DNA of 64,000 nt, from contig OY729428.2 of the NCBI GenBank assembly GCA_963422375.2, forward strand, positions 2,816,001 through 2,880,000. Direction: 5' to 3'. The notes below the pieces were generated by a model. The model made no database searches. It saw only the letters and a list, made by a program, of their open reading frames with translations, and was not told the origin of the DNA. Source of the stretch: Bryobacterales bacterium. Its GTDB lineage: Bacteria; Acidobacteriota; Terriglobia; Bryobacterales; UBA6623. The position numbers were made by a program, and so were the translations under genes. This document shows, piece after piece, positions 1 through 36,405 of the stretch (positions are counted from its first letter, which is position 1; every line of letters begins with the position of its first letter).

Positions 1-1425
1 GACTGTCCAACACGCCAGCCCGCTGCCATGGCTAGTCTCTTCCACGAAGCGCCCGTACTCCTCCTGCGTCACCTCGTACACTCCCACCGCCAACGGCCCA
101 CTGATCGTCACACGGCGCTGAGGCCCTTCGTCGTTTTGCCTGCCGTCCTCTGTAGACGGAGACCCCATCGTGAACGAGCCCCCGGGCACTACTACCAGTT
201 CCGGACAGCCTTCGCAATCGTCGCGGAAGCGGTCCCCCGCGCGCAGGGGTGGCCGCAATCCGCGAATGAGAACCTTGGCTTGGTCCAGCAGCGGCTTGGC
301 CCGCGGAACCCCCTCGTACTTCTCGACGAAGGCATTCAGAGCCTTCAAGTTCTGGCTCTGCTCCACCATTGGCCACACTTGCTGCGCTTCCTCTGCAAGC
401 CGTTGCTGCTCCCGGCCCGATTCCGCCGCAGCGCGTTCCCCGCGCAGCTTCTCGCGAAGCGCTTCTGCGAGAGGCAGGACGATCTTGGCCTCGTCCTTGC
501 CCTTCCACCTCTCGATAAACTCATCCACCTTGCTCTCGCTGTCGGATCCGCTTAATAGCTTCCATTCTTCAAGCGCCGTCAATTCCCTTGAAGGCGGCGG
601 CACCGGATCGGCACCTGTTCCGGCGGGTGCACCGCGCAGATAGACCTTTCCGATCAGATCTTCATAGATCGCCGGATTCTGCTGCTTTCCCGAGGCAGCG
701 TACACTGCCGCCTTCGTGCGTTGGAAGGCTTCTCGTAACTCTACTACATCACGCTGGAGTTCCGGCAAGAAATGGGTAATATAGGTTCCGAACTCGTCTC
801 TGGAAGCGCCGCTTTCCATTCTGTTATTCCCCGTCGGGTACGCGATCAGGGTGCCTTCAGAACCCGCGCTCATCGCCGCCAGCCCAGCTACCATGCTCCC
901 GTCCTCCAGAAACGGATTGTCACGGCAAGCATCTAGCACGAGCACTCGTACGCGAGCGCTGGCCTCCAGCAAGTTGCGAACCGCGTCTGCCGACAGCGCG
1001 GCATCGGGCACCTTCGTCGCTGGGGTCTGGCCGTAGTCCGCCGGAAGAAGGTAGTTCCTACCATCGGCCTGCAACCCGTGTCCGGAGAACCAGAAGAACG
1101 CCAAGTCGTCGCCCTGCAACTCGCTACTGAAGTCCCTCACCGCACGGTCCATCTCCCGCAGGCTCAAGTTCTCGAGCCTTGTCACGCTGAATCCGAGTCC
1201 GCGCAATGCGCCCTCCAGCGCGCGCACTTCCGCGGTCGTGCTCTTCAGCGGCAGGGCCATCTCATAGGCGGCGTTGCCGATGACCAATGCCTTCCTCCCC
1301 GCTACGGCAACCGGCTGGAGCGCCCCATCCTGCGCCTCAAGCAACACCTGCGGCAGCGCAACGCCCAGCAGAGCTGCGGCCACGATGGTTCCGTGACAGA
1401 TCGATCGACGGTTGCAACAGGTCAT
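1..1425 (-). CDS. Caspase-like peptidase C14 domain + helical repeat linker + FGE-sulfatase/CLec domain protein (3' end outside window)
   Basis: Manual translation (not in the ORF track because there is no stop in the window). ATG at 1425 follows a GAGGAAG RBS. Hydrophobic N-terminus MTCCNRRSICHGTIVAAALLGVALPQVLLEAQ; then RKALVIGNAAY, FWFSGHG (catalytic His) and LVLDACR (catalytic Cys); then RFRDDCEGCPELVVVPGGSFTMGS...EGPQRRVTISGPLAVGVYEVT, homologous to the two DGR targets. Confidence 0.9.
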   Translation of the reverse strand, partial: MTCCNRRSICHGTIVAAALLGVALPQVLLEAQDGALQPVAVAGRKALVIGNAAYEMALPLKSTTAEVRALEGALRGLGFSVTRLENLSLREMDRAVRDFSSELQGDDLAFFWFSGHGLQADGRNYLLPADYGQTPATKVPDAALSADAVRNLLEASARVRVLVLDACRDNPFLEDGSMVAGLAAMSAGSEGTLIAYPTGNNRMESGASRDEFGTYITHFLPELQRDVVELREAFQRTKAAVYAASGKQQNPAIYEDLIGKVYLRGAPAGTGADPVPPPSRELTALEEWKLLSGSDSESKVDEFIERWKGKDEAKIVLPLAEALREKLRGERAAAESGREQQRLAEEAQQVWPMVEQSQNLKALNAFVEKYEGVPRAKPLLDQAKVLIRGLRPPLRAGDRFRDDCEGCPELVVVPGGSFTMGSPSTEDGRQNDEGPQRRVTISGPLAVGVYEVTQEEYGRFVEETSHGSGLACWTV

Positions 1426-2436: not shown

Positions 2437-4359
2437 CTAGGGAATTGTCCTCAGTACGCGGAAGCCCAGGACGCTGTTGCGGTCGCCGGGGCTGAGCCTG
2501 AAGCGGTACGCCGACCGGCCGTACCGCGGACCGTCGCCCCAGCTGCCGCCCCGAAGGACCCGGTCGGAGCCCGTAGCGGGGCCTCGCGGATCTGTCGCAG
2601 CGCCGCTCGGGTAGGACCCGTACCAGTCCTGCACCCACTCCCATACATTTCCGTGTACGTCGTGCAAGCCGAAAGCGTTTCGACTGAATGACCCCACCGG
2701 AGCCGTATGCACGTAGCCGTCCCGACACGGCGCGACCCCGGCCCAACGGTAGTGGTCCGCTCCGACTTGGTCTGCCATGTTTCCGTACCCGCAGGTCCGC
2801 GTGTAGTCCGGATCATCGCCATAGGAGAAGCGGGTCTCCGATGTCCCCCGAGCCACGTACTCCCACTCCGCCTCGGTCGGCAACCGATACTTCTCGCCTG
2901 TCTTCCCCGACAGCCACTTCACGTACGCCTGAGCATCGTTCCAAGACACACACACCGCGGGCTCCTGCCGACCCTGGCGGAACCCGGGATTCGTCCACGA
3001 TCGCCCGGTGCGAGCATCCCATTCCCCGCTCTCGTGAGTCCGGCACGCCGACCCGCCGTCATGGCCGGCGTCATCCACGAATCGCCCGTACTGCTCCTTC
3101 GTCACTTCGTACACTCCTACCGCCAGCGGGCCGCTGATTGTCACGCGGCGACGAGGCCCCTCATCGTCCTCCCGGTCATTCTCATACGCCGGCGACCCCA
3201 TCATGAATGAGCCCCCGTCCACCACCACCATCTCCGGACAGCTATCGCAGTCCCGAAAACGGTCCCCATCCAGGCCTGGACGCAATCCACGTAGACTCCT
3301 CTCCGGCACTCCAAGGACCACTGCCAGCAACGTCGCAGCGACGGTCCCCGTCACCAGCGCTACCAGCCACCGCGCGGTCGAGCGAGACCGGTCTGGATGC
3401 ACATTAGAGCGCTCTTCGGCGACGCGCCCCGACCCCTGCAGGAGCCCCACGAGGTCCGCGCAGTCCTGTACTCGGTCCTCCTCCCTCAATTCAAGGCATC
3501 GGTCAATCGCCGTGAGAATCCGCTCCGGGAACCGCCCTGCTCCCACCTCTCGCGCCGGCGGCAGTGGGTCCGCTTGGCCCCGCAAGAACGCGGTCAGCCG
3601 CGCCTCCACCTTCACCGGCTGCCGGGATACTGACTCCACCGCCCCTCCGGCGACCATCCGCCACATCACCGCCCCGACCGCGTACAAGTCCGTCCACGGC
3701 CCCAGCTTCCCTTGCCCAACCTGCTCGATCGCCGCGAAGCCTTCCGTGTAAGGGGCGTAAGTCCGCGACACTCCAGCGAGCGTCTGCTTCGCCGCACCGA
3801 AGTCGATCAGCACCGGTCGCTCCGCCTCCTGCCGAATCAGGATGTTGCTGGGCTTGATGTCCCGGTGCAACACGCCAGCTTCGTGGACCGCCTTCAGCCC
3901 TCCCAGCAGCGGAACGATCACCGCCAGCAGGTCAGCCTCGCCGAACGGCCTCCGCGCACGCTCCCGCAGCGCCAGCAAGTTCGCCAGCGACATGCCTTCC
4001 ACGTAATCCATCACGAGGTAAGCCGTGCCGTTCTCCCGGAAGAAATCCCTGCACGTCACGACGCTGGGGACGTCCTTGAATTCGGTCAGGCGCTTCGCTT
4101 CCTCGAGGAACCTATGCAGGCCCTCCGCGAAGTCCTCCCTGCCAGCCTTGCTCCTCGGATGCACCATGCCGTCCTCGCGGACGGACAGCTCGGCGGGGAA
4201 ATACTCCTTGATCGCAACGAGGGATCCAAGGTCCCGGTGCAGCGCCTTGTAGACGATGCCGAAACCGCCGTGCCCCAGCTGCGCCTGCACCTCGTACACG
4301 CTATTGAGAAGCAGGCTGCCCGCCGGCAGCGCGACACGGGTGGGGTCTTCGCCGCCCAT
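2437..4359 (-). CDS. DGR remote target B: Ser/Thr protein kinase - TM - FGE/CLec domain with C-terminal variable repeat
   Basis: Kinase motifs GHGGFG, VAIKE, HRDIKPSN, DFG; TM segment WLVALVTGTVAATLLAVVLGVP; FGE motifs RLPTEAEWEY, GNVWEW, RGGSW, GFRV. Confidence 0.95.
   Translation of the reverse strand: MGGEDPTRVALPAGSLLLNSVYEVQAQLGHGGFGIVYKALHRDLGSLVAIKEYFPAELSVREDGMVHPRSKAGREDFAEGLHRFLEEAKRLTEFKDVPSVVTCRDFFRENGTAYLVMDYVEGMSLANLLALRERARRPFGEADLLAVIVPLLGGLKAVHEAGVLHRDIKPSNILIRQEAERPVLIDFGAAKQTLAGVSRTYAPYTEGFAAIEQVGQGKLGPWTDLYAVGAVMWRMVAGGAVESVSRQPVKVEARLTAFLRGQADPLPPAREVGAGRFPERILTAIDRCLELREEDRVQDCADLVGLLQGSGRVAEERSNVHPDRSRSTARWLVALVTGTVAATLLAVVLGVPERSLRGLRPGLDGDRFRDCDSCPEMVVVDGGSFMMGSPAYENDREDDEGPRRRVTISGPLAVGVYEVTKEQYGRFVDDAGHDGGSACRTHESGEWDARTGRSWTNPGFRQGRQEPAVCVSWNDAQAYVKWLSGKTGEKYRLPTEAEWEYVARGTSETRFSYGDDPDYTRTCGYGNMADQVGADHYRWAGVAPCRDGYVHTAPVGSFSRNAFGLHDVHGNVWEWVQDWYGSYPSGAATDPRGPATGSDRVLRGGSWGDGPRYGRSAYRFRLSPGDRNSVLGFRVLRTIP
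2450..2571 (-). repeat. DGR variable repeat VR-B
   Basis: 122-nt ungapped match to TR 30015-30136 with 19 mismatches, 17 at TR adenines. Confidence 0.95.
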
Positions 4360-5225
4360 GGAGAATGAGTGCTCTTCCTAATCGCGTCGCGACCTTGCCC
4401 GTTTCGAGGCGCAGCGCGAACGGAACTTGAATATACCGAATCCAACCTAATTCCCAGCTACTTGCGAAGTAGGTGGCTCGAACTGCCTGCGTGCGTTGGA
4501 AGGCGATTGGCTCACGGCGCCCATGCAGCAGAATCGTCTCATTCGACATGCCAAGACATGAGAACGCGGGAGTCGATGCGCGGCGCATACGAACGGCATC
4601 GAGTCGTTTTGGTCCCTGTTCAAGCGCGGCCTGTACGGAACCTATCACCGGATGAGCGTCCGTCATCTCGGCCGCTACCTCACGGAGTTCGCGGGACGGC
4701 GCAACGACCGCGACTGCGACACGGCGGAACGGATGCGGCGCATGGCGCGGGGCCTGGTCGGCCGGACGCTGACCTGCCGGCAGCTGACCGGCAAGGCCGC
4801 GGTCGCGGCCCGAGCGGCGCCCGCCGCGCCGAGCGCGGCAGCCCGCTGCGGGCGCGCTCTTCACGCTCGGTACGAGGGGCGCACCGGATCCGGCATGCCC
4901 CGGCGCGACCCCGGTCCGGTCCGGACCGTCCATGCAGGCCGTCGAGCGCCGGGGATCCGCTGTCTTCGGCCCTCGCAGGGCCTGCAAGCGGCTTGCAAGG
5001 CGTGCCCTGCCACCGCCAACCGGGTTTCACCGGGGCAACCGGGGCATGCGAGGCGGCCTCTCTAGTCCCTTCCTCGTCCAATCCGCTGGCAGGCTCGATT
5101 CACATACGATCCCACCCCCCACCCCTCTGTGCCCGCCGCGGCCGCACTCGCATGACCCCAGCTCGACACCCACCTCCCTGCTCACAGCAGTTCTAGGCCG
5201 ACATGGCGTTGTCGGCACTCAGATA

Positions 5226-6788
5226 GAGCCTTTTGCAAAAATCCCGAGCTAATAGCATTATCATTTAGTTAGTCTATTAAGTATTCGATATAATCAATGG
5301 AATAGAACTGAAGTAAATGTAGTTTTAATGGCTTGTCTGCGTTTTGAGTTTCCTGACAATCCCTTGCCCTCCGTGCTATTATTGTAATGCAAGCCTAGTA
5401 AACAGCTGGCAGGATTCAACGAATATGTCCTTGATAGAAACCGTATCCGCGTACTGGTTCACGTTCCAGCAGGGGCTGTTCCCCTGGCTCCAGCAGGAAC
5501 TCGGCCCCCTCGGCGAGCGCTACCGCAGCTTCGTTCAAGCGGTGGAACTGGCGCAGGTCGAGGACTGCCTGCCCGTCGGGCAGGGCGGCCGCGGCCGCCC
5601 CCGCGCAAGCCGCGCCGCCATGGCGCGCGCCTGCATCGCCAAGGCCGTCTTCGACCAGCCCGCTACGCGCTCGCCGGTCGAGCGCCTGCAGACCGATCAC
5701 ACCCTGCGCCGACTGTGCGGCTGGGACCTGGCCGGGGCCGTGCCCGGCGAGGCAACCTTCTCGCGCGCCTGCGCCGAGTTCGCCGCCGGCGAACTGCCCG
5801 GACGCTTGCACCAGGCGCTGCTCGCGCGGACGCTCGACGGCCGCTTGGCAGGGCACGTCTCCCGCGACTCGACCGCCATCGAGGGCCGCGAGCGGCCCGC
5901 CGGGAAGCCCGCGCCGGAGCCGAAACGCAAGCGCGGGCGCCCTCGCAAGGGCGAGCAGCGGCCGCCCGCTCCGCGCCGACTGGCGCGGCAGCCCGACATG
6001 AATCTCGAAGCAATGCTGCACGACCTGCCGCAGGGCTGCGATACCGGCACCAAGCGCAACGCCAAGGGCCGTACCGTCAGCTGGCGCGGCTACAAGCTGC
6101 CTATCGACGCGATCGACGGCGGGATCCCGGTCAGCTGCCTGCTCACCGCGGCTTCGCTGCACGACAGCCAGGCCGCGATCAGGCCGCGATCCCGCTGGCG
6201 ACACGGACCGCGGGCCGCGTCGACAACCTGTACGACCGGATGGACAGCGCGCGCGACGCGGCCGGGATCCGGGCCTTCAGCAAGCGGCTCGGGCACGTGC
6301 CGATCATTGATGTCAACCCGCGCGGCCGGACGGAGCTGCAGGCGGATCTGGCACGGGAGGCCAAGGCGCTGCGCAGCGCCGGGCGGGCGGAGCCCGCCAA
6401 GCTGCGCTACCGCGAGCGCTCGACGGTGGAGCGTGTCAACGGCCGCCTGAAGGACGATTGCGGCGGGCGCCACGTGCGCGTCCGCGGCCACGGCAAGGTG
6501 GCCACGGCAAGGTGCTGTGCCACCTCCTGTTCGGCGTGCTCGCGCTGACGGTGGAGCAGCTCCTGCGCCTGGCGCTCCGAGAGCCCGGGCCGCCGGGACA
6601 GCCGCGAAGAGCGCCCGCCCGCAGGGCCGCGCCGGGAGAGCTGCGCCTGCACCGGGCCGCTCCTCGCAGGAGCGCCCCGCAGCCGAGCAAGCCCAGCTGC
6701 AGGGGGTCTTTTTCGGCGAGAATAACAGCCCGGAAACTAGTCGTTCATGGGGCGGTCAGCCCTCTTTTCTGAATTTTGCAAAAGGCTC
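5226..6788 (+). mobile_element. IS4/IS5-like DDE insertion sequence (1563 bp)
   Basis: 15-bp perfect TIR GAGCCTTTTGCAAAA at both ends; 5-bp direct repeat AGATA at 5221-5225 and 6789-6793. Exact family assignment uncertain. Confidence 0.9.
5425..6772 (+). pseudogene. DDE transposase with two frameshifts
   Basis: Motifs SRDSTAIE, GYKL, SLHDSQAA, YRERSTVERVNGRLKD are split over three frames by tandem duplications at 6170-6191 (11 nt) and 6487-6514 (14 nt). Confidence 0.85.
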
Positions 6789-6945
6789 AGATATATAATT
6801 CCCTTTCGAATCAATGCGCCTCAATGCGCCGTATCTTGACAGGAACGGAGCGCTTCGGGCTCTCGCTCCCGATGCCCTGTCAGCGGCCGACGGTCAGCTT
6901 ACTGGAACCTCGCCGACGCGCGGAGTCGAGGCGTCACAGGGCCAA

Positions 6946-15607: not shown

Positions 15608-17310
15608 GCGAGTCCACCACGCGCCCAGCGGGCCCCGCTCTGGAAGCGGCCCCGGGCCAAGCGCCCGTCTGCAGGTCATTGAATCAGATGCGAGGCCGTA
15701 TTGCAACTGCTCCGGGGCGGATTCCGGAGAAATGCCGTTGCGGGCTGTTGGGAAGGCTTGCCGGTGCGGGCGCGAAGAACCGACCGTGGCAGGGGCTCGC
15801 GCCCCTTCCTGCGGCTCCCGTCCGGCCATCGCGCCGAGACCGGTTCCCCGGACCCGCACGCCGTCCCGCCGCAGCGCCCATCGCCAGCCCGGCAGGCAGG
15901 ACGGCGCGCCCGCGAGCATCGCGCCGAAGACCGGGCTCGCTCCCTACTAGAATACCCGCTGGATGGCCCGTCGCAGCGACCCAGCAGCTCAGAGGGCCTC
16001 CGGGCCAGGGAATCTCCGCCTTTGCGTCGCGATCGCCATGCTCGCTTGGGCGGCCGCGGGTCTGGCGAGCGGCACGGCGTCCTATCTGGGGCAGGTCTCC
16101 GGCGTCTCAGGGGTAGACGCCTTCGACGACGTCGTTGCCGTGCTCTCCGGTCGAGGCGTGCTCGAAACCGCCGCTCCGGACCCTCAGGGGCGATTCGCGT
16201 TCTACGGCCTGCCCGCCGGCTCCTACGCGGTCCAAGTCCGCAAGCCCGGATACGAGTCGTCTCCGAGCCGGGCCTTCCGCGTCGGCGCGGGCGGGCAGAT
16301 GTCAGGCGAAGGCACCGACAACGAATTCGCGCTCAGACAGCTGGCTCCCGACACCTTCGTCTTCCACTGGGAGGAAGACCAGAGCACGGCCGGCTACGAT
16401 TACGCGTCTCGCGTCAACAAGCCCCCGGAGATCCAGTTCCTCGACGAAGGCGCCGCCACTGCGGACGGAGCCTCGGCCGACCAGCTTCTGCACGACTACA
16501 ACGTGTCGCTCATCGACGGCGCGGGCGGCTCGTGGACCCACGAGCACGCCTACCGGCTCCTGCAGACGATGGAATCCATCCCGCAACGGAAGAGGGATCC
16601 CTACCGCGTCCAGTCGCTGCCGCCGAGTCAGTGGTTCATCGCTTCGGGCCATCTCGCGAGCGACATACGAATCGACAGGAACGCTGGAGACGGAGCAGCG
16701 GTTGTCCGAATCTCCGCTGACACATTCATTCGTGCAAGCCCGAGGATTGCACTCGTCGACGGCAAGAAGGGCAAGTACTACTCGCAAAGACTGCATCATG
16801 CAGTCGTTCGGTTCGTCACGGACAATGGCCGCAATCGAGATGCGTTCGAGAGAATACTCAACGAACGCTTCGGCGTGACGACTCGGATCAACCGCCACTT
16901 GACATACGAGGAACTGACTGCCGGAACCACAGGCGAACCGGCGTCTAGATTCCAAGAATTTCATCCAGAGGAGATCGTCCGGATCATCAATACATTCGAA
17001 GAGATGCCATCAGGAATGCATGCCATTCCGGGACTCAAGTATCTCGTGCGGCGCTTGGACGGAAGTCCGAACCCTACGACCTCCGCTCCGGCAGTGGCGT
17101 ATACGTCCGCAGGCTACATTGAATTCATGGAAGAGGCATTCAAGAACACATCCGTTCAGTACATCCATCGCCTGATCATCCACGAGAAATCGCATTTCCT
17201 ATGGGAATACCTGCTTGATGACGGCCTCAAGCGGAACTGGACCACCCTCGGGGGTTGGCACCTAGACGCAAGCGATCCGGACGGTTGGTCCACAACCAAG
17301 CAAACGGAAT

Positions 17311-18339
17311 GGCTCAATTCGCAAACCGTAGGCGCGGTCTGGCCATCGCCGCCTTGAGACACGCTCTGGGCGATGGCTGATCGCCGAGTTCGGTGAGATG
17401 GAACCACCTGAGATAGCTGTCCAAGTACTTGGTGGCGATGCCGCGCCGCCTGCGCAGAAAGCCCTTGATCTGGCTGTGGCGGCTATTGACCGTCTGGATG
17501 TGCACAGCACCCCGGACCCGCTCGCCAGCGGAAGCGTTGATGCTCTCGTGAGGGATGTCGAGTGCCTCCGCGACGGGCGGATAGCAGCGGTTGGCGTCGG
17601 AGACGAGCAAGGCATCGCGGGCGACGACCGGCTCCAGCACTTCCTTCACGCTCTTTGCGTTGAGGGCGGGCAGGGTATGGCTGAGGGTCTCGCCCGCACG
17701 GTCGGCGGCGACCAGGATCGGCACCTGCTCGCGCGAGAGGCCGCGTTTGCGGGCCTTGCCGCCGCGCCGGCGCGGCTTGCGGTCCAGCTTCCGCTCCCCC
17801 TTGCGGCTCTCCAGAACGAAGGTCTCGTCAGCCTCGACGATCCCGGCAAGCCGATCCGGCGCCTGGCGCACCGCCGCCGGAAAGCGGTGTCGCCAGCGAT
17901 GCGCCGTGCTCGGCGCAATCCCGCAGCGCTCGGCGGACTCCTTGACCGTCTCACCCTCGGCAAGCGAGGCGCCAAAGGCAAGCCAGCGCTCCTTATGGTG
18001 CAGACCCGACAGCGCTGTGCCGGTCAACGCACCGAACGTCTTCCCGCAGTCCTTGCACCGGAAACGGCGGAGACCGCGCGCCTTGCCCCGCGACACCGCC
18101 CCGCCGGCGCCGCAATGCGGACAGCGCCGCTCGTCATCCACGCCCAGATCGATCGCCGCCAGCGAGGCCGCGCCCTCCGAAGGCTCCGACAGCACCGCCG
18201 CCACCTCCCTGCGCTGCGCCGCCGTCAACTCATCGACACGCGAGAACCAATCCCGAAACCGCTCGTGATCCATCTGTCTGACCTCCAGGGCAAATCGGGC
18301 GACATTCTATCACGATGCCTACGATTCACGAATTGAGCC
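17311..18339 (-). mobile_element. IS1595-family insertion sequence (1029 bp)
   Basis: TIRs GGCTCAATTCG / CGAATTGAGCC (imperfect out to about 24 bp); 8-bp TSD AACGGAAT at 17303-17310 and 18340-18347. Confidence 0.95.
17314..18273 (-). CDS. IS1595-family (ISXO2-like) transposase
   Basis: CPHC...CKDC zinc ribbon, HTH, VEADETF, VSD, HIQTVNSRH, GIATKYLDSYLRWF; frame intact. Confidence 0.93.
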   Translation of the reverse strand: MDHERFRDWFSRVDELTAAQRREVAAVLSEPSEGAASLAAIDLGVDDERRCPHCGAGGAVSRGKARGLRRFRCKDCGKTFGALTGTALSGLHHKERWLAFGASLAEGETVKESAERCGIAPSTAHRWRHRFPAAVRQAPDRLAGIVEADETFVLESRKGERKLDRKPRRRGGKARKRGLSREQVPILVAADRAGETLSHTLPALNAKSVKEVLEPVVARDALLVSDANRCYPPVAEALDIPHESINASAGERVRGAVHIQTVNSRHSQIKGFLRRRRGIATKYLDSYLRWFHLTELGDQPSPRACLKAAMARPRLRFAN

Positions 18340-20008
18340 AACGGAATTCGTCAGCGCGTATGCTCATGAGAAAAACCCAAACGAGGACATGGCCGAGTCA
18401 ATCGCCTACTTCGTCGTCAACCCCGACAAGCTCCGGTCCCGTTCGCTGCCAAAGTACGAATTTATTAGGGACAGGATCATGCAAGGCAATATCTACATGT
18501 CTTTGATTCGCGAAGATCTAACATTCGAAGTATATAACCTGTACCCTGATTATGTGTTCCCAGGCAAGATTCGCAGAGTGGACATCAAAGTCATCGGAGC
18601 GCCGGAAGACGACAAGGAAGTTCTGATCGAGATCGCCTTGCATGCGTTCGACAACGTGCTGGAAGGCGCGATCAGCGCATACGCTAGAATCCATAGCGAC
18701 GCAGGGACTTACAAGGACGTGTACCTTTATCCCGTCGGCGTGCCAAGGGGCACCCCCGGGACCGTGCTTTCCGGCGGCTTCAAGCTAAGCAAGCACGCCA
18801 AGGCCGGATACTGGAGCCCGGATCAAGTCTCGCTTACCGACGAGCACCTCAACGAACGCTTCGTAGGGCGAAACGATTTCGGCTGGAGGCTCTACGTCAA
18901 CAATCCGCAGGAAGACATCACTCCTCCGCATTATGTGAGGAATTCAGCGCGCCTCGCGAAATCCGTCGCGACACGCGAAGGACAGGAAGTGCAACTCATC
19001 GAGGCTAGCTGGAGCGTGGGCGAGAATTCAGGGTTTATGCGAGAAGGTTCGGCGTGCGCAGCTGCGCTGAACGATCAGAACCTCGAAACCTACAGCGTGT
19101 TCGAGTACGGAGACTATGACCCGCGCACCGAGACCTGCCTCGTAGTTTTCGAAATGCCCGACTACATGCCGTCAGCAATGTACGCGATGAACTACATCAT
19201 GATGACCGATCGTGCGTTGAACGTATCGGGCATCTACTTCGGCGACCCGAATCACGGCCTCAGGCAAGAGGAATCCATCGTCGATGAGGTCGCACCGCGA
19301 ATCAGGCTGAGCACAAGCAACGAAGACACGCTTCCTCCGGAGATCGATCTGAATAGGATCCGAATCCAAGCCGAGCCTAGCAGGCCGAGCGATCCCAACG
19401 GAGAAACCTTGGTTACATTGGACTTCGTCGTCCGGGACGACATATCAGGCGTTCGCATTGCGAGTCTTTACTTGCGAGATCCACAGGGGAACGACCACCA
19501 CCATTACGTTTACGGAAACTTTGAGGGCCATGCTCTGTTTCCAGCTAGCGATCCAACCCAGTGGAGCCACCAGAGATGGACTACGATTCTTCCTCCCGGC
19601 TCTCCTCCGGGAACTTGGGGTCTCTTGGAGCTCAACGTACAAGATCGTGCGGGCAATGCACGCCGATACAACTTCGCTGAAACAATTCACTTCGACATCG
19701 AATAGATGGATAGAAGATGAAGGTGAATTCGATTGAATTACTCTAGAATATCCATTGTTTCGGTCGAGTCCCATGCATTGCGCTCACCCGGCAGACGGGG
19801 CGTGAAGATCCACTGCACCCCGCCCTGTCCCCATGCATGCCTTCACTCGCCCGGGCGCAGGCCCTGACCGGCGCTGGCGCCCCGCCGCCAGTGCGGACGT
19901 CCGGCCGACGGGGCGGCCGGCAAGCGCCGATGCAAGCCGCCCCTGACACGTCGGCCGGCCCGCGTCTTGCAACTCCGACCGGCAACCGGCGAAAATGGCG
20001 GTGCGGGG

Positions 20009-24092: not shown

Positions 24093-27221
<3,129 letters not shown>

Positions 27222-27237
27222 CCGCGTCTCCCGCCGG

Positions 27238-28482
27238 CTAGTCGTACTCCCCGGCGAGGAACCACTCGCCCGTGGTTCTCTCGCAGCAGGCCCGGTACAG
27301 GCGCCGCTGGACCTCGACGTCCCATTCCTGGTACTGCCAGCCTTCCGGCGTCCACCACTCGCCCGAGACACGCCAGGGCCCGGCGCAGGCCGTCACGGGC
27401 CCGCGAGCCTCCCGCGCCTCGACACGGACGGGACGGCCGCCGCGCAGGGTCACCTCCGCTGGGCTCGACGGCCGGAAGCAGCGGAAGGCCAAGGAGCTCC
27501 TCGGAGGGACGGCCACCCGGAGAGAGCGCGGCTGCCGGCGTTCCCGCGAGAGTCCGGGCGAGCCCGGCGCAAGGCCGGTCCCGCACCCTGCCGCGGGCGG
27601 GCGGAACGCCGCCAGCGCCGCCGCGCCGGGCCGGTGCGTGTCCGGAACCACCGGCGCCCCGGCCCGCCCGTCCCCGACCAAGCAGGCCAGCCGCGCCAGC
27701 GTCACCGCCAGGGTCTCCGGATCCGGCAGGTCGGGCGGCGCGAACAGGGACGCCTGCACCCGCCGGCGCTCGGCTGGCTCGGCCGACACGCGCACGCCCT
27801 CGACCGAGCCGCCCGGGGGATGCGCTTACAGGTCGACCATCCGCCCGCGCGGCAAGGTCGCCAGATCGCCGATCTTGCGCACGCCCCAGCGCTCCAAGGT
27901 CGCTCGGTCCTTGCCGTCCAAGGGCAGCAAGTCGAGGGGCAGATCCTGCAGGAAGCCGGGCTCCTGCCCCGGGTACACGTGGGTCACGCCCGGCTGCGTG
28001 CGCGCCGCGCACAGGGCGACGAAGCGGTTGCAGGCGACGCCGACACTAGCGCGGAGTCCGAGCCGGGCGGCGCCCGCGACCAGGCCCGCGGCCGCGGCGT
28101 AGGGATCGTGCAAGCCCGCGAAGTCCAGCGCGAGCAGGCCGGGCGCGACCTCCTCGAATAGCGGCGTCGCCGTCTCGGCCAGCTTCAGCAGCCGGGCATG
28201 GGCCCTCCGCTCCGCCCCGACGTCGCGGTCGAGAACCAGCAGCGGCCGCTGCGCCCCGGCAACGGAATAGCGCGCCTGCGCAGCAGCCAGAACCATGCCC
28301 TCGCGCACTCCTAGCGACCTAACGCGCGCGTCGGCGGCGTAGACGAACCGGTTGGGCGGCTCGCCGCAAGCGACCGTCGTCGGCTGCGGCCGGCGCTCTC
28401 CCGCCTGCAGCACGGCGACGGGGAAGTCGGGCACGTGCAGCGCGGCGTACAGGCGGGCGGCACCGGAGGGCCGCGCTGTCAT
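27238..28482 (-). pseudogene. imuB: ImuB (Y-family polymerase-like) with in-frame stop and apparent internal deletion
   Basis: LYAALHVPDFP...ERWGVRKIGDLATLP, then TAA at 27826-27828, then in the same frame AHPP...VQASLF...GPWRVSGEWW...GEYD. The central region looks shorter than typical ImuB. Confidence 0.85.
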
Positions 28483-29201
28483 CTCGCTCTCCCCGGACGC
28501 AGGCCGCGCACTCTGTCCCGGACGATTTCCGCGCGAATGCCGATGCCTCCCAGCAGGCCGTCCCACTCGGTCCGCTCGCGGCGCAGCTCCAGCACCACGT
28601 CCGCAACGCTGCCGGCCACGTGCTTGGCGGCCAGCACGACCAGTGCCGCGGGCGTACCTTCCACGGCCTGCCTGAGCCGCGTCCACGTCCGCCGCTGCCA
28701 GTCGCCGAGCTGGCGGTCGGAAAGCCCTCCGAGGTCGACCGCGATCAAGCCGAAGCCGCCTGCCGAGACGACCAGGTTCGTCGCGGACCAAGCCTCGTCC
28801 GCAGGCGAGAGGCTCCGCGCTCCCGGGTCGCGACGGAGAGTCCCCGGATCGCCGCAGCGGACCCACAGCAGCCGCTCCAGCAGCACCCCGGCCTGCTCCG
28901 CCGAGCGGGGATCCAAGCAGTCGGTCGCGTCGACGTACGCGGCGATCTCGCTCGCTCGGGTCAGCCGGGCGAGAGCGGCCAGGACCAAGCCCGTGCGACC
29001 GGACGAGCACGGCCCGGTGACTTCGCTGATCGCGCCGCGGGGGAGACCGCCGCCGAGCCGGGCGTCCACGCTCTCGATCCCGCTCGGCACGGGGGGATGA
29101 CGGGGCTTGGCCCGTCCGGGAAGGGTCCGGCCGAACCCGCGCTTCCGGACCAGCTCCTCAATCACTCCGATGCTCTTGGGCAATGCGGCGGGACAAGACA
29201 T
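28479..29201 (-). CDS. imuA: ImuA / RecA-like protein
   Basis: SGIESVDARLGGGLPRGAISEVTGPCSSGRT; its stop overlaps the imuB start (ATGA). Confidence 0.85.
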   Translation of the reverse strand: MSCPAALPKSIGVIEELVRKRGFGRTLPGRAKPRHPPVPSGIESVDARLGGGLPRGAISEVTGPCSSGRTGLVLAALARLTRASEIAAYVDATDCLDPRSAEQAGVLLERLLWVRCGDPGTLRRDPGARSLSPADEAWSATNLVVSAGGFGLIAVDLGGLSDRQLGDWQRRTWTRLRQAVEGTPAALVVLAAKHVAGSVADVVLELRRERTEWDGLLGGIGIRAEIVRDRVRGLRPGRAR

Positions 29202-29856: not shown

Positions 29857-30014
29857 GCGCCTGCAACGGCCTTCGAGCCCGGGCAGGCCTACCAGACGTC
29901 GCAGGCGCTATGGGTTGTTTGTCCGGCCGCCTGCCGGAGCGGGATGAACCGCTTGGACACGGCGATGGCACGCGGGCGAGGTCCTTGAACCGCGCCCTCT
30001 GGCGCCGTCGTGTG
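29857..30014 (-). ncRNA. Structured spacer 3' of TR (part of the DGR RNA)
   Basis: Three stem-loops directly after the TR: 29974-29997, 29922-29938, and a 12-bp stem 29857-29868/29897-29908. Confidence 0.55.
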
Positions 30015-30136
30015 CTCAGCACGCGGAAGCCCAGGTTGCTGTTGCGGTTGCCGGGGCTGTTCCTGTTGCGGTTCGCCGACCGGCCGTTCTGCGGATGGTT
30101 GTTCCAGCTGCCGCCCCGATTGACCCGGTTGGAGCC
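30015..30136 (-). repeat. DGR template repeat (TR)
   Basis: Reads GSNRVNRGGSWNNHPQNGRSANRNRNSPGNRNSNLGFRVL with 11 AAY codons; matches VR-A and VR-B with mismatches concentrated at adenines. Confidence 0.97.
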
Positions 30137-30147
30137 TGCTACGGCGG

Positions 30148-31161
30148 TCACCCCAGATGCAAGGATACCTCGAACACCTGCCTGCGCGCCATGTGGCAGT
30201 CTGCGTGACTGACGTGCGCGACCATGCTACGCACGAACTGCGCGAGCTCGTCCTCGGAGATCTTTCCGTGTCGGTATGCCCTCTCCCGGCCTCGGACGCG
30301 ACGGCGCAACCGCGCCCATTGGCGGCCATCGAGCCTCAGCAAGACGGGAAAGACGCGGAAGCCGAGGAATGGAATCCCTTGGGTCACGGGAGCGAGCCTA
30401 GTGTGTTCCTCCCGCAGATCTAGTCGCAGCGTCTCCGACAGGAATTCCCGGACGGCAGCCAGAGCCTCGTGCAGCCGAGGCTTATCACGAGCGAAGACCG
30501 CGACATCGTCCATGTAGCGCACGTAGCCCGGCAGGCGCAGCCTGTCCTTGACGAAATGGTCCAACTCGCCCAGATACATGTTCGCGAAGTACTGGCTCGT
30601 GAGATTCCCGATGGGGACACCCTTCCCCGGCGCACATCCTGGAATCGGATGGTCGACTATCCCGTCGATGAGCGCTAGCAACGCCTTGTCCTTGACCTTG
30701 CGCCTCCACATCGCCTTGAGCACGTCGTGGTCAATCGTCTCGAAGTACTGGCGGACGTCGCAGAGTAGCGCGTAGGGGAATCGCCGCGCAAAGTGCTGCA
30801 CTCGACGCACGGCCGCGTGAGTGCCGCGGCTCCTTCGGCACGCACAACTGTCGTCGATCAGACCCTGCTCGACGATCGGATCGAGAACGTTGCAGAGAGA
30901 GTGGTGAACCACCCTGTCGCGGAAGTCCGCCGCGCAGATCTTGCGGGGCTTCGGCTCGCGGATCTCGAACACACGATACGGACGCATCCGGTAGCGGCCG
31001 GACTGCAGATCCTCCTGCAGCATGAGCAAGTTGGACTCCAAGTGGAACACGAACCTAGCAATGCCGACGTTCCCCTGCTTTCCCCGCCGTGCGGCATAAG
31101 CGGCATCCAGCAGGCTCCGATACTCGGTGACCTGCTCGAACAGGTGCCCGTGTCGTTTCAT
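30148..31161 (-). CDS. DGR reverse transcriptase
   Basis: FRDRVVHH, GTHAA, GVPIGNLTSQYFAN (SQ motif), YVRYMDD, FLGF; 337 aa with no maturase or endonuclease domain; flanked by avd and TR. Confidence 0.96.
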   Translation of the reverse strand: MKRHGHLFEQVTEYRSLLDAAYAARRGKQGNVGIARFVFHLESNLLMLQEDLQSGRYRMRPYRVFEIREPKPRKICAADFRDRVVHHSLCNVLDPIVEQGLIDDSCACRRSRGTHAAVRRVQHFARRFPYALLCDVRQYFETIDHDVLKAMWRRKVKDKALLALIDGIVDHPIPGCAPGKGVPIGNLTSQYFANMYLGELDHFVKDRLRLPGYVRYMDDVAVFARDKPRLHEALAAVREFLSETLRLDLREEHTRLAPVTQGIPFLGFRVFPVLLRLDGRQWARLRRRVRGRERAYRHGKISEDELAQFVRSMVAHVSHADCHMARRQVFEVSLHLG

Positions 31162-31511
31162 CGGCCCGCCTGCTGCTTGCGCCAGCCTCCGAGCATAGCG
31201 CCAACCTCGCTCATGCGGCGCATGGCGTACTCGCAGCGCGAGTGCGGGAAGTAGCCCACCACATGGCAGATCCGCAGCAAGATTCTCAGCTTCTCGAGAC
31301 GCAGGTTAGCACGCGCCAAGACCGGCTGCTTGGCGCGGGAATACCGCGCCTCGACCAAGTCCTCGGCCATATCGAGGGCTAGGTTGTCGATGCGGTTGGA
31401 AAAAGTGAAACGGACATGCTTAGGGAGCTTGGCGGTCGTCGGCAGCAACCAGTTCAGGAAATCCAGCCACGCAACGAAGACAGGCAGGTCCCCGTCTGAC
31501 CTCGTGCCCAT
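31158..31511 (-). CDS. avd: DGR accessory variability determinant (four-helix bundle)
   Basis: 117 aa; PKHVRFTFSNRIDN, LEKLRILLR, EVGAMLGGW; ATGA overlap with RT. Confidence 0.92.
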   Translation of the reverse strand: MGTRSDGDLPVFVAWLDFLNWLLPTTAKLPKHVRFTFSNRIDNLALDMAEDLVEARYSRAKQPVLARANLRLEKLRILLRICHVVGYFPHSRCEYAMRRMSEVGAMLGGWRKQQAGR

Positions 31512-31515
31512 GGAA

Positions 31516-32065
31516 CTAGGCCCCTTCCAAGAGGGGCGGTTTGGCCGGAGGAGCGGCCGGGCCGGTCATGTCCCGCTTGCCCTTGCTCGCGTTGCTACCG
31601 CTAGCGGACCGTAACCCAGAACTGGGGGGCATCGACAGCAGTTCCTACCCGTATTTTTCCAGCTTGGCCTTTCCGATGCCCTCGATCTCGCCCAGCTTGC
31701 CTAGGCTGCGCGGCCTAGCTTTGATCATCGCTACGAGCTGCTTGTTCGTGCAGATTAGGTAAGGCGGCACGCCATCTCTCTTGCTACGCTCCGCTCGCCA
31801 GTCGCGCAGCGCGTTGAAGAGCGGCATATCCGCGTCCTTTAGGTCGACCTGCCTCCCGTCGCTCGGGTCGCGAGCGCCTCGCCCGGGGGGAGGGGGGCTC
31901 CATCGCGTAGGTCACGACCGCCGCTAGATACGGAATGTCTTCGCGCATGAAGAAATGGTCGCGAATCGAAAGCACGTGCTTCCCCTTCAGGAAGTCGCAC
32001 AAAGGCTGGTCATTGAAGGCGTCAAGCACACGATCAAAACGCATTGTAATGATTCTGGCTAGCAT
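31516..32065 (-). pseudogene. HRDC-domain DGR accessory gene (frameshift plus nonsense codon)
   Basis: LFNALRDWRAERSKRDGVPPYLICTNKQL...IEGIGKAKLEKYG is an HRDC domain. Frame change near the C6-T-C6 tract (31885-31897); TAG at 31645-31647 with the frame continuing (ELL...) to a TAG 4 nt before avd. Confidence 0.85.
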
Positions 32066-32195: not shown

Positions 32196-34784
32196 CTAGG
32201 GAATTGTCCTCAGCACGCGGAAGCCCACGCCGCTGCCGCGGTTGCCGGGGCTGAGCCTGAAGCGGTACGCCGACCGGCCGTACCGCGGACCGTCGCCCCA
32301 GCTGCCGCCCCGAAGGACCCGGTCGGAGCCCGTAGCGGGGCCTCGCGGATCTGTCGCAGCGCCGCTCGGGTAGGACCCGTACCAGTCCTGCACCCACTCC
32401 CATACATTTCCGTGTACGTCGTGCAAGCCGAAAGCGTTTCGACTGAATGACCCCACCGGAGCCGTATGCACGTAGCCGTCCCGACACGGCGCGACCCCGA
32501 CCCAACGGTAGTGGTCCGCTCCGACTTGGTCTGCCAAGTTTCCGTACCCGCAGGTCCGCGTGTAGTCCGGATCATCGCCATAGGAAAAGCTGGTTTCCGA
32601 TGCCGCCCGAGCCACGTACTCCCACTCCGCCTCGGTCGGCAACCGATACTTCTCGCCTGTCTTCCCCGACAGCCACTTCACGTACGCCTGAGCATCGTTC
32701 CAAGACACACACACCGCGGGCTCCTGCCGACCCTGGCGGAACCCGGGATTCGTCCACGATCGCCCGGTGCGAGCATCCCATTCCCCGCTCTCGTGAGTCC
32801 GGCACGCCGACCCGCCGTCATGGCCGGCGTCATCCACGAATCGCCCGTACTGCTCCTTCGTCACTTCGTACACTCCTACCGCCAGCGGGCCGCTGATTGT
32901 CACGCGGCGACGAGGCCCCTCATCGTCCTCCCGGTCATTCTCATACGCCGGCGACCCCATCATGAATGAGCCCCCGTCCACCACCACCATCTCCGGACAG
33001 CCGTCGCAGTCCCGCAAGCGGTCCTCCGCCTCCGGGCGCGGACGCAATTCACGGAGCAGCACTCGAGCCTGTTCCAGCAGCCCCTCGGCTCCGGCAACCC
33101 CGTCGTACTTTTCGATAAAGGCCTCTGCCGCTTTCGAGTTCCGGCTCCGCTCCACGAATGCCCAGGCATCCCCCGCTTCCTCGGCAAGCTCCCTTGCGAG
33201 GCGCTCGTTTCGCAGCCTCCCGAGCAGCACTTCGGCGAGAGGCAGGACCACCCGAGCATCCTCCCGTCCCTGCCACTCCCGGATGAATTCCTCCACCTCG
33301 TCCTCGCTGTCGGAGTCCTCCATCGACTTCCATTCGTCAAGAGCTGTCGATTCAGCCGGTGGGGAGTTGGAGGGCCCTGACTGGTTCGGTGGCTCAATTG
33401 TCTCCTGTGCCTTTCCGGCCGGGCGGTCGTCCGAGGGCGGAGGCGACACGACTGTGGCGCTGGGAGGCCCAAGCTTCGGGACTGCCTTGGGCATCGCCGG
33501 CGATGCGCCGTTTTCGGCCTTCTTCGAACCCTCTGGCTCTGACGACTCGGTCGTGGCACCAGCAGAGTCAGTCTCTTGCGGCGGCGTATCTGCCGTGGCA
33601 ACCCCTCCTGCGTTGTCGCGACCGTCTGGATCCGGCCCGGGCCCTGCCGACCTTGAATCCGACACCGGGGCACGCCCGCCCTCATCTTCGATGTCCCCTG
33701 GCGAACCTCCCTCCGGCACTCCAATGACGACCGCTGCAAGCAAGGCTGCGGCCACGGCGGCAGCCCCGAGGGCCACTGCCCATCGCGCGGTCGAACGAGA
33801 CCGCCCCGGGGGCTGAACCGAGGGCTCCTCGGCGACGCGTCCCGGCCCCTCCAAGAGCCCCGCGAGTTCCGCGCAGTCCTGTACTCGGTCCGCCTCCTTC
33901 AGTGCGATGCATCGGTCAATCGCCGCGAGAATCCTTTCAGGGAACCGCCCCGCTCCCACCTCACGCGCCGGGGGCAGCGGATCCTCTTGCCCCCGCGCGA
34001 ACGCGGTCAGTCGCGACTCCACCTTCACCGGCTGCCGGGAGACCGCCTCGTCCGCACCCCCGGCGACCATCCGCCACATCACCGCCCCGACCGCGTACAG
34101 GTCCGTCCACGGCCCCAGCTTGCCTTCCCCGACCTGCTCAATCGCCGCGAATCCCTCCGTGTACGGGGCGTACGACCGCGACATTCCGGCGAGAGTCTGC
34201 TTCGCCGCCTCGAAGTCGATCAGCACGGCCCGGTTCTCTTCCCGGTCCACCTCTCGCCGAATAAGGATGTTGCTCGGCTTGATGTCCCTGTGCAGCACGC
34301 CGGCGTCGTGGACCGCCTTCAACCCTCCCAGCAGCGGCACTGTCACCGCCAGCAGATCGGCCTCCCCGAACGGCCTCCCCGCGCGCTCCCGCCGCGCCAG
34401 CAGGTCCGCCAGCGACATGCCTTCCTCGTAATCCATCACGAGGTACGCCGTGCCGTTCTCCCGGAAGAAATCCCTGCACGTCACCACGTTGGGGACGTCC
34501 TTGAATTCGGTCAGGCGCTTCGCTTCCCCGAGAAACCTATGCAGGCCCTCCGCGAAGTCCGCCCCGCGAGCCTGGCTGCTCGGATGCACCGTGCCCGCCT
34601 CGCGGACGGACAGCTCGGCGGGGAAATACTCCTTGATCGCGACGAGGAATCCAAGGTCCCGGTGCAGCGCCTTGTAGACGATGCCGAAACCGTCGTGCCC
34701 CAGCTGCGCCTGCACCTCGTACATGCCGTTGAGAAGCAGGCTGCCCGCTGGCAGCGCGACACGGGATCTGCCCTCTCCGCCCAT
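32196..34784 (-). CDS. DGR adjacent target A: Ser/Thr (pseudo)kinase - TM - low-complexity and helical linker - FGE/CLec domain with variable repeat
   Basis: Start MGGEG chosen by homology to target B; GHDGFG, VAIKE, HRDIKPSN, DFE; TM segment WAVALGAAAVAAALLAAVVIGVP; FGE motifs; VR at the C-terminus. Confidence 0.95.
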   Translation of the reverse strand: MGGEGRSRVALPAGSLLLNGMYEVQAQLGHDGFGIVYKALHRDLGFLVAIKEYFPAELSVREAGTVHPSSQARGADFAEGLHRFLGEAKRLTEFKDVPNVVTCRDFFRENGTAYLVMDYEEGMSLADLLARRERAGRPFGEADLLAVTVPLLGGLKAVHDAGVLHRDIKPSNILIRREVDREENRAVLIDFEAAKQTLAGMSRSYAPYTEGFAAIEQVGEGKLGPWTDLYAVGAVMWRMVAGGADEAVSRQPVKVESRLTAFARGQEDPLPPAREVGAGRFPERILAAIDRCIALKEADRVQDCAELAGLLEGPGRVAEEPSVQPPGRSRSTARWAVALGAAAVAAALLAAVVIGVPEGGSPGDIEDEGGRAPVSDSRSAGPGPDPDGRDNAGGVATADTPPQETDSAGATTESSEPEGSKKAENGASPAMPKAVPKLGPPSATVVSPPPSDDRPAGKAQETIEPPNQSGPSNSPPAESTALDEWKSMEDSDSEDEVEEFIREWQGREDARVVLPLAEVLLGRLRNERLARELAEEAGDAWAFVERSRNSKAAEAFIEKYDGVAGAEGLLEQARVLLRELRPRPEAEDRLRDCDGCPEMVVVDGGSFMMGSPAYENDREDDEGPRRRVTISGPLAVGVYEVTKEQYGRFVDDAGHDGGSACRTHESGEWDARTGRSWTNPGFRQGRQEPAVCVSWNDAQAYVKWLSGKTGEKYRLPTEAEWEYVARAASETSFSYGDDPDYTRTCGYGNLADQVGADHYRWVGVAPCRDGYVHTAPVGSFSRNAFGLHDVHGNVWEWVQDWYGSYPSGAATDPRGPATGSDRVLRGGSWGDGPRYGRSAYRFRLSPGNRGSGVGFRVLRTIP
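32209..32330 (-). repeat. DGR variable repeat VR-A
   Basis: 122-nt ungapped match to TR with 20 mismatches, 18 at TR adenines. Confidence 0.96.
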
Positions 34785-34954
34785 GGAGATAGAATACCCT
34801 TGCACAGCGCGTCGCGCCCCCAGCGACAGCAAGCCACAAGATGACCCGGACGTGAGTGTACCGAGAGCAGCCTCAGAATTCCGTACATCGAAGGATTGGT
34901 CAAGTACGGCCGTCCGGCGTGAGGCCGTGGGATTCTCCGCAAGGCCTTTCGATT

Positions 34955-36405
34955 GAGAATTATATATCTGAGTGCCGAGGGAATCAAGTCGGCAAATTAT
35001 CAAGCCATAATAAGATTTCATATTTCTTCCGAATTTCCATTGAAATTCTGTGGTGTTTCTTGGTAGAATAGTTCCAGTATGGGATACCGTAAATGAAGAA
35101 ACAAGATCCCGGAAAGTGGTTCCGCAAAGGCATCACATTGATCGAAGTGATCGCCATGTTCTCCGATGACGAATCCGCGGAAAAATGGTTCGCCTCCATG
35201 CGCTGGCCGGACGGTCCCGCGTGCCCCCGCTGCCGCGGCTCCAGCGTGCAGTCCGGCGCGGCCGACCCTTCGATGCCGTACCGTTGCCGCGGCTGCGGCA
35301 AGCGCTTTGCCGTACGCACCGGCAGCGTGACGGCCGACACCAAGCTCGGCTACCGCACCCGGGCCGTCGCCCTGTTCCTGCTGACCACCGGCATCAAGGG
35401 CGTCTCGAGCATGAAGCTGCACCGCGACCTAGGCATCAGCCGGAAGTCGGCCCGGCACCTGGCGCACCGCATCCGCGCGTGCCGGGAGCGGGATCAGGGC
35501 CTGTTCGCCGGCCCGGCGGAGGTGGACGAGACCTGCGTCGGCGGCAAGGAACGCAACAAGCACGAGAGGAAGAAGGCCCGCGCCGGGCGCGGGCCCGTCG
35601 GCAAGACCCCGGTGGCGGGGGCGCGGGACCGCGCCACGCCCGGGGCGCAGGTCCGCTCCGACGAGGCGGCGGCCTGCGCCGGCATGGCGGAGTTCGCGCG
35701 CGAAGCCGTCAGGCACTCCGGCGGCGAGTACGTGCGCGGGGCAGGGCATACGAACGGCATCGAATCGTTCTGGTCCCTGTTCAAGCGCGGCCTGTACGGC
35801 ACCTATCACCGGATGAGCGTCCGTCATCCGGGTCGCTACCTCACGGAGTTCGCGGGATGGTACAACGACCGCGACTGCGACACGGCGGAACGGATGCGGC
35901 GCATGGCGCGGGGCTTGGTCGGCCGGACGCTGACCTACCGGCAGCTGACCGGCAAGGCCGCGGTCGCGGCCCGAGCGGCGCCCGCCGCGCTGAGCGCGGC
36001 AGCCCGCTGCGGGCGCGCTCTTCACGCTCGGTGCGCTCGGTGCGCTGCACACTCGGTACGAGGGGCGCACCGGATCCGGCATGCCCCGGTGCGCCCCCAG
36101 TCCGGCCCGGACCGTCCATGCAGGCCGTCGAGCGCCGGGGATCCGCTGTCTTCGGCCCTCGCAGGGCCTGCAATCGGCTTGCAAGGGGCGCCCTGCCACC
36201 GCCAACCGGGTTCCACCGGGGCATGCGAGGCGGCCTCTCTAGTCCCTTCCTCGTCCAATCCGCTGGCAGGCTCGATTCAGATGCGATCCCACCCCTCCGT
36301 GCCCGTCGCGGCCGCACTCGAATGACCCGAGCTCGACACCGACCTCCCTGCTCACAGCAGTTCTAGTCGGACATGGCGTTGTCGGCACTCAGATACATAA
36401 TTCCC
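34955..36405 (+). mobile_element. IS1595-family element (probably defective)
   Basis: TIRs GAGAATTATATATCTGAGTGCCG / CGGCACTCAGATACATAATTCCC; no matching TSD on its own flanks. Confidence 0.9.
35093..36325 (+). pseudogene. IS1595 transposase with apparent internal deletion and read-through tail
   Basis: RWPDGPACPRC...CRGC, EVDET, SDE, HTNGIESFWSLFKRG, YRQL. The stretch between DRAT and PGAQV is unusually short. Confidence 0.75.

Follow-up and report, generated by a model that had tools for sequence, protein, structure and literature searches.

A caspase-CLec gene near a DGR cassette is probably a descendant of the target module that is no longer rewritten

An intact caspase-CLec gene lies at the left edge of a 64,000-nt stretch of Bryobacterales DNA (GCA_963422375.2, contig OY729428.2, cited below as G000:C2, positions 2,816,001 to 2,880,000; the whole stretch is referred to hereafter as the window). 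Sequence comparison indicates that this gene is likely a descendant of the module carried by the neighboring DGR targets, that it is very probably not rewritten now and that its specificity is probably fixed. The parts of this reading differ in strength. It is highly probable that the gene is not a current third DGR target, and its descent from the target module is likely; whether the module was itself mutagenised while fused to the caspase is close to an even bet. The original prediction, which was made from the letters of the window, had proposed the gene as a candidate third DGR target. That place belongs to a remote kinase-CLec gene, so that the three kinase members are the diversified ones of the family and the caspase member is fixed.

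Results

The 475-codon frame that had been described as running off the left edge (window 1..1425, minus strand) extends to 673 codons. The whole gene occupies G000:C2:2817425-2815404, ends 597 nt left of the window and encodes a caspase-linker-CLec protein of 673 aa. GAGG lies directly upstream of the ATG, and a scan for promoters and terminators found nothing distinctive. The predicted signal-like N-terminus (aa 1-30; 1336..1425) was present, with basic residues and a single hydrophobic peak at aa 13-29 in the hydropathy plot; AQ follows the hydrophobic stretch at the same place in close homologs. It is probably a Sec-type signal with cleavage after Ala30, and the protein is probably exported. 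The Pfam search suggested with the original prediction returned Peptidase_C14 of the orthocaspase type at aa 44-262 (640..1296; E 1.1e-27, 97.7 bits against a cut-off of 21.4 bits). Both members of the His/Cys dyad were intact as stated (His116 in SGHG, 1080-1078; Cys167 in DACR, 927-925), and neither varies in any of the 90 aligned sequences.

A helical linker (aa 280-390; 256..588) is common to target A and the caspase-CLec homologs and is missing from target B. The likeness to target A that had been noticed there was confirmed by 60% identity over linker and CLec (aa 267-672). The FGE-sulfatase/CLec domain, of which only the start (1..207) is in the window, proved to be complete (aa 407-670; Pfam E 2.5e-57). 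The gap to target B on the same strand is 1011 nt, in agreement with the estimate of about 1 kb. A single-sequence model of the protein was poor (pLDDT 43), and an alignment-based model was used instead (mean pLDDT 90). It matched PvdO and human FGE best, and also TvpA, a DGR protein of Treponema denticola (variable protein 1; E 1.5e-16), and the caspase domain of MALT1 (E 5e-15). By domain, dyad and fold, the gene is intact and encodes a caspase-family cysteine protease with predicted activity.

At the level of the genome the parts of a DGR (RT, Avd and TR) are present. The cassette runs, all on the minus strand, in the order target A, split HRDC gene, avd, RT and TR. Target A (kinase-TM-linker-CLec; 32196..35021) has a VR at 32330-32205 that differs from the TR at 18 of 31 adenines and 3 of 95 non-adenine positions. 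The HRDC accessory gene (31645..32065) is in two frames of 93 and 60 aa; it is likewise split in congener G021 and whole in G019. Next come avd (31158..31511; NCBIfam NF033474, 98.7 bits, cut-off 80), the reverse transcriptase of 337 aa (30148..31161) and, directly after it, the TR (30011..30136; 126 nt compared, 31 adenines). The assembly holds one avd and one close RT; a second RT-like match on contig C1 has 29% identity.

Target B (kinase-TM-CLec; 2437..4359, minus strand; VR 2571-2446, 17/31 adenines and 3/95 non-adenines) is a duplicate of the target A region minus the linker. A and B differ at 13 positions in the last 800 nt and at 6 in the last 48 nt, and four of the latter face TR adenines, a distribution that suggests homing after duplication. 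A 5' remnant of HRDC (2154-2307) was copied along with target B. IS-like repeats of a family with more than 100 assembly matches lie upstream of both targets (4580-6790 and 35093-36395), a second family with about 20 matches lies upstream of target B, and such repeats may have driven the duplication. The third target is a kinase-TM-CLec gene on the plus strand at G000:C2:1378123-1379961 (L195), 1.47 Mb away, with 15/31 adenine and 2/95 non-adenine differences. A convergent kinase-TM-CLec paralog, K2 (C2:2812493-2814751, plus strand; L001:12493-14751), may have been retired as a target at an earlier date. Kinase and CLec are separated by hydrophobic segments in all four kinase genes, namely A, B, the remote gene and K2.

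The VR of the caspase gene, if present, had been placed outside the window. A VR-like stretch was indeed found to the left, at C2:2815538-2815413, but it is decayed. It matched the TR at 73% over 122 nt (E 5e-19), with mismatches at 19 of 31 adenines versus 16 of 95 other positions (p 5e-6). Two findings had been named as contrary to the original prediction, a 3' end with no TR match and mismatches not biased to adenines; the match and the bias were both found. The bias was equally present in paralogs, in K2 (19/31 adenines, 19/95 others, p 3e-5) and in a second control with 22/95 non-adenine mismatches. Control paralogs may be former targets and are not clean negatives; a broken paralog at C2:2112964, which aligned out of frame, was dropped from these counts and four distant FGE genes were left out. 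Close paralogs pass the adenine-bias test because the TR adenines sit on codons that vary among paralogs. We rejected the bias alone as evidence of target status, since K2 passes too: it does not by itself identify a DGR target.

The non-adenine positions separated the genes. Only 54% of the caspase mismatches (19/35) fall at TR adenines, compared with 85-88% in the three clean targets. When the whole assembly was scanned with the TR, ignoring adenines and allowing up to 30 mismatches in the 95 remaining sites, six other places were recovered with 2, 3, 3, 16, 19 and 22 mismatches. The first three belong to the clean targets (the remote kinase-CLec gene, B and A); with 16, the caspase gene is the nearest to the TR of the non-clean paralogs. 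It differs from the pooled targets (16/95 against 8/285, p 1e-5) and is not distinguishable from the two other paralogs (41/190, p 0.43). Among its 16 non-adenine changes 10 are synonymous, and at fourfold sites it differs from the TR at 7 of 18, as against 0/21, 1/22 and 1/22 in the targets and 7/19 and 6/16 in the paralogs. Within the final 21 nt of the matching stretch (its IMH-like part) there are three differences in the caspase gene and one or two in the clean targets. Fourfold divergence between the caspase gene and target A was lower in the VR (6/20) than upstream (60/117), a difference that was not significant (p 0.09). No second or better TR for the caspase 3' end was found in the assembly (96% complete, 3 contigs), the best remaining at 16 non-adenine mismatches.

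A working threshold of at least 75% of mismatches at adenines is given in PMC8144416, and the largest number of non-adenine differences in one target that PMC5758913 gives is 11, with several such changes described as frequent in some DGR lineages. At 54% and 16/95, the caspase 3' end lies outside a rule of at least 75% at adenines and few other changes. Under the 50%-identity rule of PMC7517822 it would count as a remote variable protein.

The sequence downstream of the stop codon was examined in the same way. Targets A, B and the remote gene have about 100 nt after the stop codon in common. With a flank profile derived from 13 targets in congener G017, all three outscored 5000 of 5000 background segments, whereas the raw caspase downstream sequence was at background level (15% of background scores as high). 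G017, G019 and G021 have kept the first part of the flank behind their targets, and from this conservation we infer a cis element of targets. Such an element directly after the VR, as in other targets, is absent at the caspase gene. In its place is a 392-bp insertion (C2:2815008-2815407), a candidate MITE or other non-autonomous IS derivative. It is bounded on either side by CTAG, with the caspase stop codon at one of the two ends, and has a 17/24 terminal inverted match. It is one of three copies; the other two are on C3, one full with CTAG ends too and one partial.

Beyond the insertion, at about C2:2815007-2814923, is a relic of the A/B downstream flank. Compared with the A and B flanks, 0 of 3000 genome segments and 0 of 500 shuffles scored as high, so that homology between the caspase gene and the targets passes the stop codon. 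Its likeness to the flank of the remote gene was weak (49/3000 score as high), and the K2 flank is weakly similar to the target flank (27/3000). The target flank at the caspase gene has thus decayed and been interrupted. We conclude that the gene is very probably no longer rewritten, because its VR is as far from the TR as those of other paralogs and the insertion parts the stop codon from the flank. We do not assert the insertion as the cause of retirement, since flank, VR and element are all old and the decay may have come before or after the insertion. A literature search, largely without subscription papers, found nothing on an insertion at the stop codon of a DGR target.

Trees of the CLec module (30 rows, bootstraps not settled) pointed to a mixed history. 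The N part placed the caspase gene together with A and B (99/94) in one subtype and the remote gene, K2 and the targets of G017 and G021 in another (100/100 split). In the C part (last 77 residues, 79 columns) the caspase gene, A and B shifted to the group in which the targets of G017 and G021 are placed together with the remote gene (100/99). The caspase CLec is chimeric, its N part being of one subtype and its 3' part of the DGR-target subtype; by motif, this chimera was seen in 2 of 120 proteins among the matches listed, and the N-part tree assigns the second of them to the other subtype. At the DNA level the remote gene and target A are 47-69% identical over most of the CLec and then 82-98% over the last 80 codons. 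Judged by this step in identity, the last 80 or so codons of the remote gene look to be derived from the lineage of target A, and the gene looks to have been recruited through exchange of its 3' end. For the caspase domain the nearest matches (52-57%) are eight metagenomic proteins with caspase and linker; in seven of these the C-terminus is a CLec of the target subtype. The simplest account of these comparisons would be that effectors at the N-terminus, halves of the CLec and the 3' end with the VR have been reshuffled repeatedly. The claim that one hypervariable module is coupled to both kinase and caspase stands in part: the module is common to both and shares one origin with A and B, but present hypervariability of the caspase copy is not supported.

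Among 40 relatives, a close RT (66-69%) was present in three (G017, G019, G021), and no ortholog of the caspase gene was found, the best long match being 38%. PF00656 occurs in 6 of 31 genomes of the genus. In a wider search 326 proteins among 8000 scored reached E 1e-40 or better; the nearest full-length relatives among the matches listed were about 43% identical. Caspase-domain loci numbered at least 83 (5 named genomes and at least 78 metagenome contigs), with at least 11 caspase-CLec fusions, and at least two fusions with an RT nearby were found among the matches listed.

Caspase-CLec DGR targets do exist in nature, as judged from the sequence of a metagenomic locus (L117:1497-15015) with an RT, a TR and four caspase-CLec genes. 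These have 0, 1, 3 and 3 non-adenine differences in 83 positions, the last with a one-codon indel; in all four His and Cys are intact, and the N-termini look hydrophobic and signal-like by eye. A fifth CLec gene there, cut by the locus edge, has 13/83. Further uncharacterised genes with signal-like N-termini adjoin these targets. A second locus (L113) contains two caspase-type CLec genes and a piece of RT; a TR was looked for and not found.

In G017, at least 75% of mismatches were at adenines in 14 of 36 CLec frames (14 regions, one TR), comprising 6/14 kinases, 8/19 others and 0/3 caspases. Its caspase-CLec genes had 33-49 non-adenine mismatches in 93 against the TR tested. The DGR target family of this genome (G017:C5:1.79-1.835 Mb, 2.99-3.03 Mb and 1.28 Mb; L073-L086) is very large, with tandem arrays of kinase-CLec and other CLec genes, and 19 of the 36 frames examined have 9/93 or fewer non-adenine mismatches, along a gradient of decay. 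The maxima given in PMC5758913 are 8 adjacent and 7 non-adjacent targets. In one G017 caspase-linker-CLec protein (G017:C5:2063875-2065881; L004, L082) the catalytic His and Cys are replaced by Tyr and Ser, and another caspase has an internal CLec and a TonB_C tail. A second DGR RT in this genome (G017:C5:3031897-3032904; L031, L076) has an internal stop, and no recognisable TR was found after it.

Read data were compared over 5.1 kb for 4 of 19 runs, which may be the source of the genome. The caspase 3' end is covered by a single contig in each of X1, X4 and X5, in every case with 0 differences; contigs drop rare variants. At target B, the positive control, the only other forms among contigs were target A (7 differences) and the TR (20), both cross-mapped. 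X13 yielded 6 partial raw reads only. The read data are no evidence either way on variation of the caspase gene.

Discussion

Among the alternatives, the one that survives best, improbable as we consider it, is an ordinary caspase-FGE gene without DGR history, in which case a sister CLec was taken up by the DGR later on and paralogy explains the likeness to the TR. Its architecture is common (119 of 120 proteins among the matches listed have both Peptidase_C14 and FGE-sulfatase), the caspase-CLec genes of congener G017 are not targets of the TR tested, and it has diverged from the TR to a similar degree as the other paralogs. This alternative is at odds with the homology to A and B that continues past the stop codon into a flank conserved behind targets in three congeners, and with a chimeric CLec whose target-type 3' part is common to A and B.

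A second alternative, that the C-terminal domain is a redox enzyme of the FGE/PvdO kind and not a binding module, is very unlikely. PvdO and human FGE are the best fold matches and PvdO is the best NCBIfam match, yet no NCBIfam score comes near its cut-off (PvdO 209 of 500, EgtB 77 of 360, GldK 87 of 350) and the DGR protein TvpA matches the same fold. The two-cysteine motif after RGGS, which we take to have a role in copper binding, is also absent, and it is seen in two other FGE-family genes here. An enzymatic FGE role for this domain is unlikely. Least credible is a current third target, served by a sloppy RT or an unassembled second TR: the adenine-biased TR match, the clean caspase-CLec targets of L117 and an assembly that is 96% complete in 3 contigs can be cited for it, but the same RT and TR leave only 2-3 non-adenine changes in three other genes, the excess is mostly synonymous, no matching TR is in the assembly and the downstream flank is displaced and decayed.

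On the preferred reading, of an intact descendant of the target module with fixed specificity, the CLec binding domain would be carried on the helical stalk outside the cytoplasm, where it may bind a fixed ligand. If the protease is exported, its CLec tip would be in the same compartment as the CLec tips of the kinases, and the kinase-TM-CLec paralogs may relay binding across the membrane. By analogy with MALT1 and with caspases that are activated as dimers, ligand binding might cluster the caspase, leading to dimerisation and activation; alternatively, the CLec tip might dock the protease on its substrate. Orthocaspases are reported to cleave after positively charged residues (PMC6426788).

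It is conceivable, if rather doubtful, that the gene is the fossil of a receptor leaving hypermutation, an exported caspase with a DGR-tuned binding tip that was once a target, became locked on one specificity when the small element entered at the stop codon, and has stayed intact from then on. If so, this gene together with the remote gene and L117 would mean that targets are recruited and retired via exchange or loss of a 3' cassette of about 300 bp, and caspases that work outside the cytoplasm with antibody-like variable tips would form a class. Since this genome contains a target probably recruited through a swapped 3' end as well as one probably retired, with decayed VR and interrupted flank, the turnover of DGR targets can be traced here. 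Exported variable-tip caspases, if active proteases, would be ligand-programmed extracellular proteases, which we did not find described in the literature searched. No paper was found there on DGRs with Peptidase_C14, nor on exported caspase targets, although caspase targets with a signal may be listed in the target tables of PMC7517822, PMC8144416 and PMC10907252. Among matches listed for secreted bacterial caspases with formylglycine, and in literature on DGRs in sponge Acidobacteriota, none was relevant by title.

The idea of a modular receptor family, put forward in the original prediction, is already in print (PMC7517822, PMC10907252). In cyanobacterial DGRs a C-terminal CLec is likewise grafted to a Ser/Thr kinase or an orthocaspase, targets may be remote, dispersed paralogs have remnant TR-VR homology (all3226), and some members have TM segments or signal peptides (PMC7517822). 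A non-diversified paralog in a DGR-linked CLec family is a pattern already described. Cyanobacterial targets are mostly predicted to be cytosolic, whereas here each of the three kinase targets has a TM segment in front of its CLec, and the caspase member starts with a signal-like N-terminus and is very probably not diversified. In several features the system also resembles the Clade 5 DGRs of multicellular bacteria, as in Thiohalocapsa PB-PSB1: the VR-bearing C-terminus is shuffled from one N-terminal effector to another, there are targets in trans, duplication took place among IS elements and a perhaps MITE-like sequence degrades DGR parts (PMC10907252). In PB-PSB1, however, MITE arrays replace RT or TR, whereas here a single insertion sits at a target-like stop codon, and ORF inspection found no MoxR/vWA/TIR partner beside the cassette.

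The cassette of HRDC and avd is that of Treponema-type DGRs, and targets more than 100 kb away are known (PMC5758913), but the HRDC gene is split in this assembly. The FGE-sulfatase domain is widespread in bacterial metacaspases, and proteins with PF00656 and PF03781 have both domains and an intact dyad as here (PMC4933709); the present protein differs from them in its distance from its nearest relatives and in a CLec chimera common to DGR targets.

Two further regions of the window were noted. Directly downstream of the TR, on the minus strand (24093-29200), is a polymerase-like gene with neighbors; from its translation and from recall, we take it to be error-prone DNA polymerase III alpha-like, with imuB/imuA-like neighbors. 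On the plus strand a large gene with a signal-like start (15963-19705) is, by eye, apparently split by a transposase-like frame (17314-18273).
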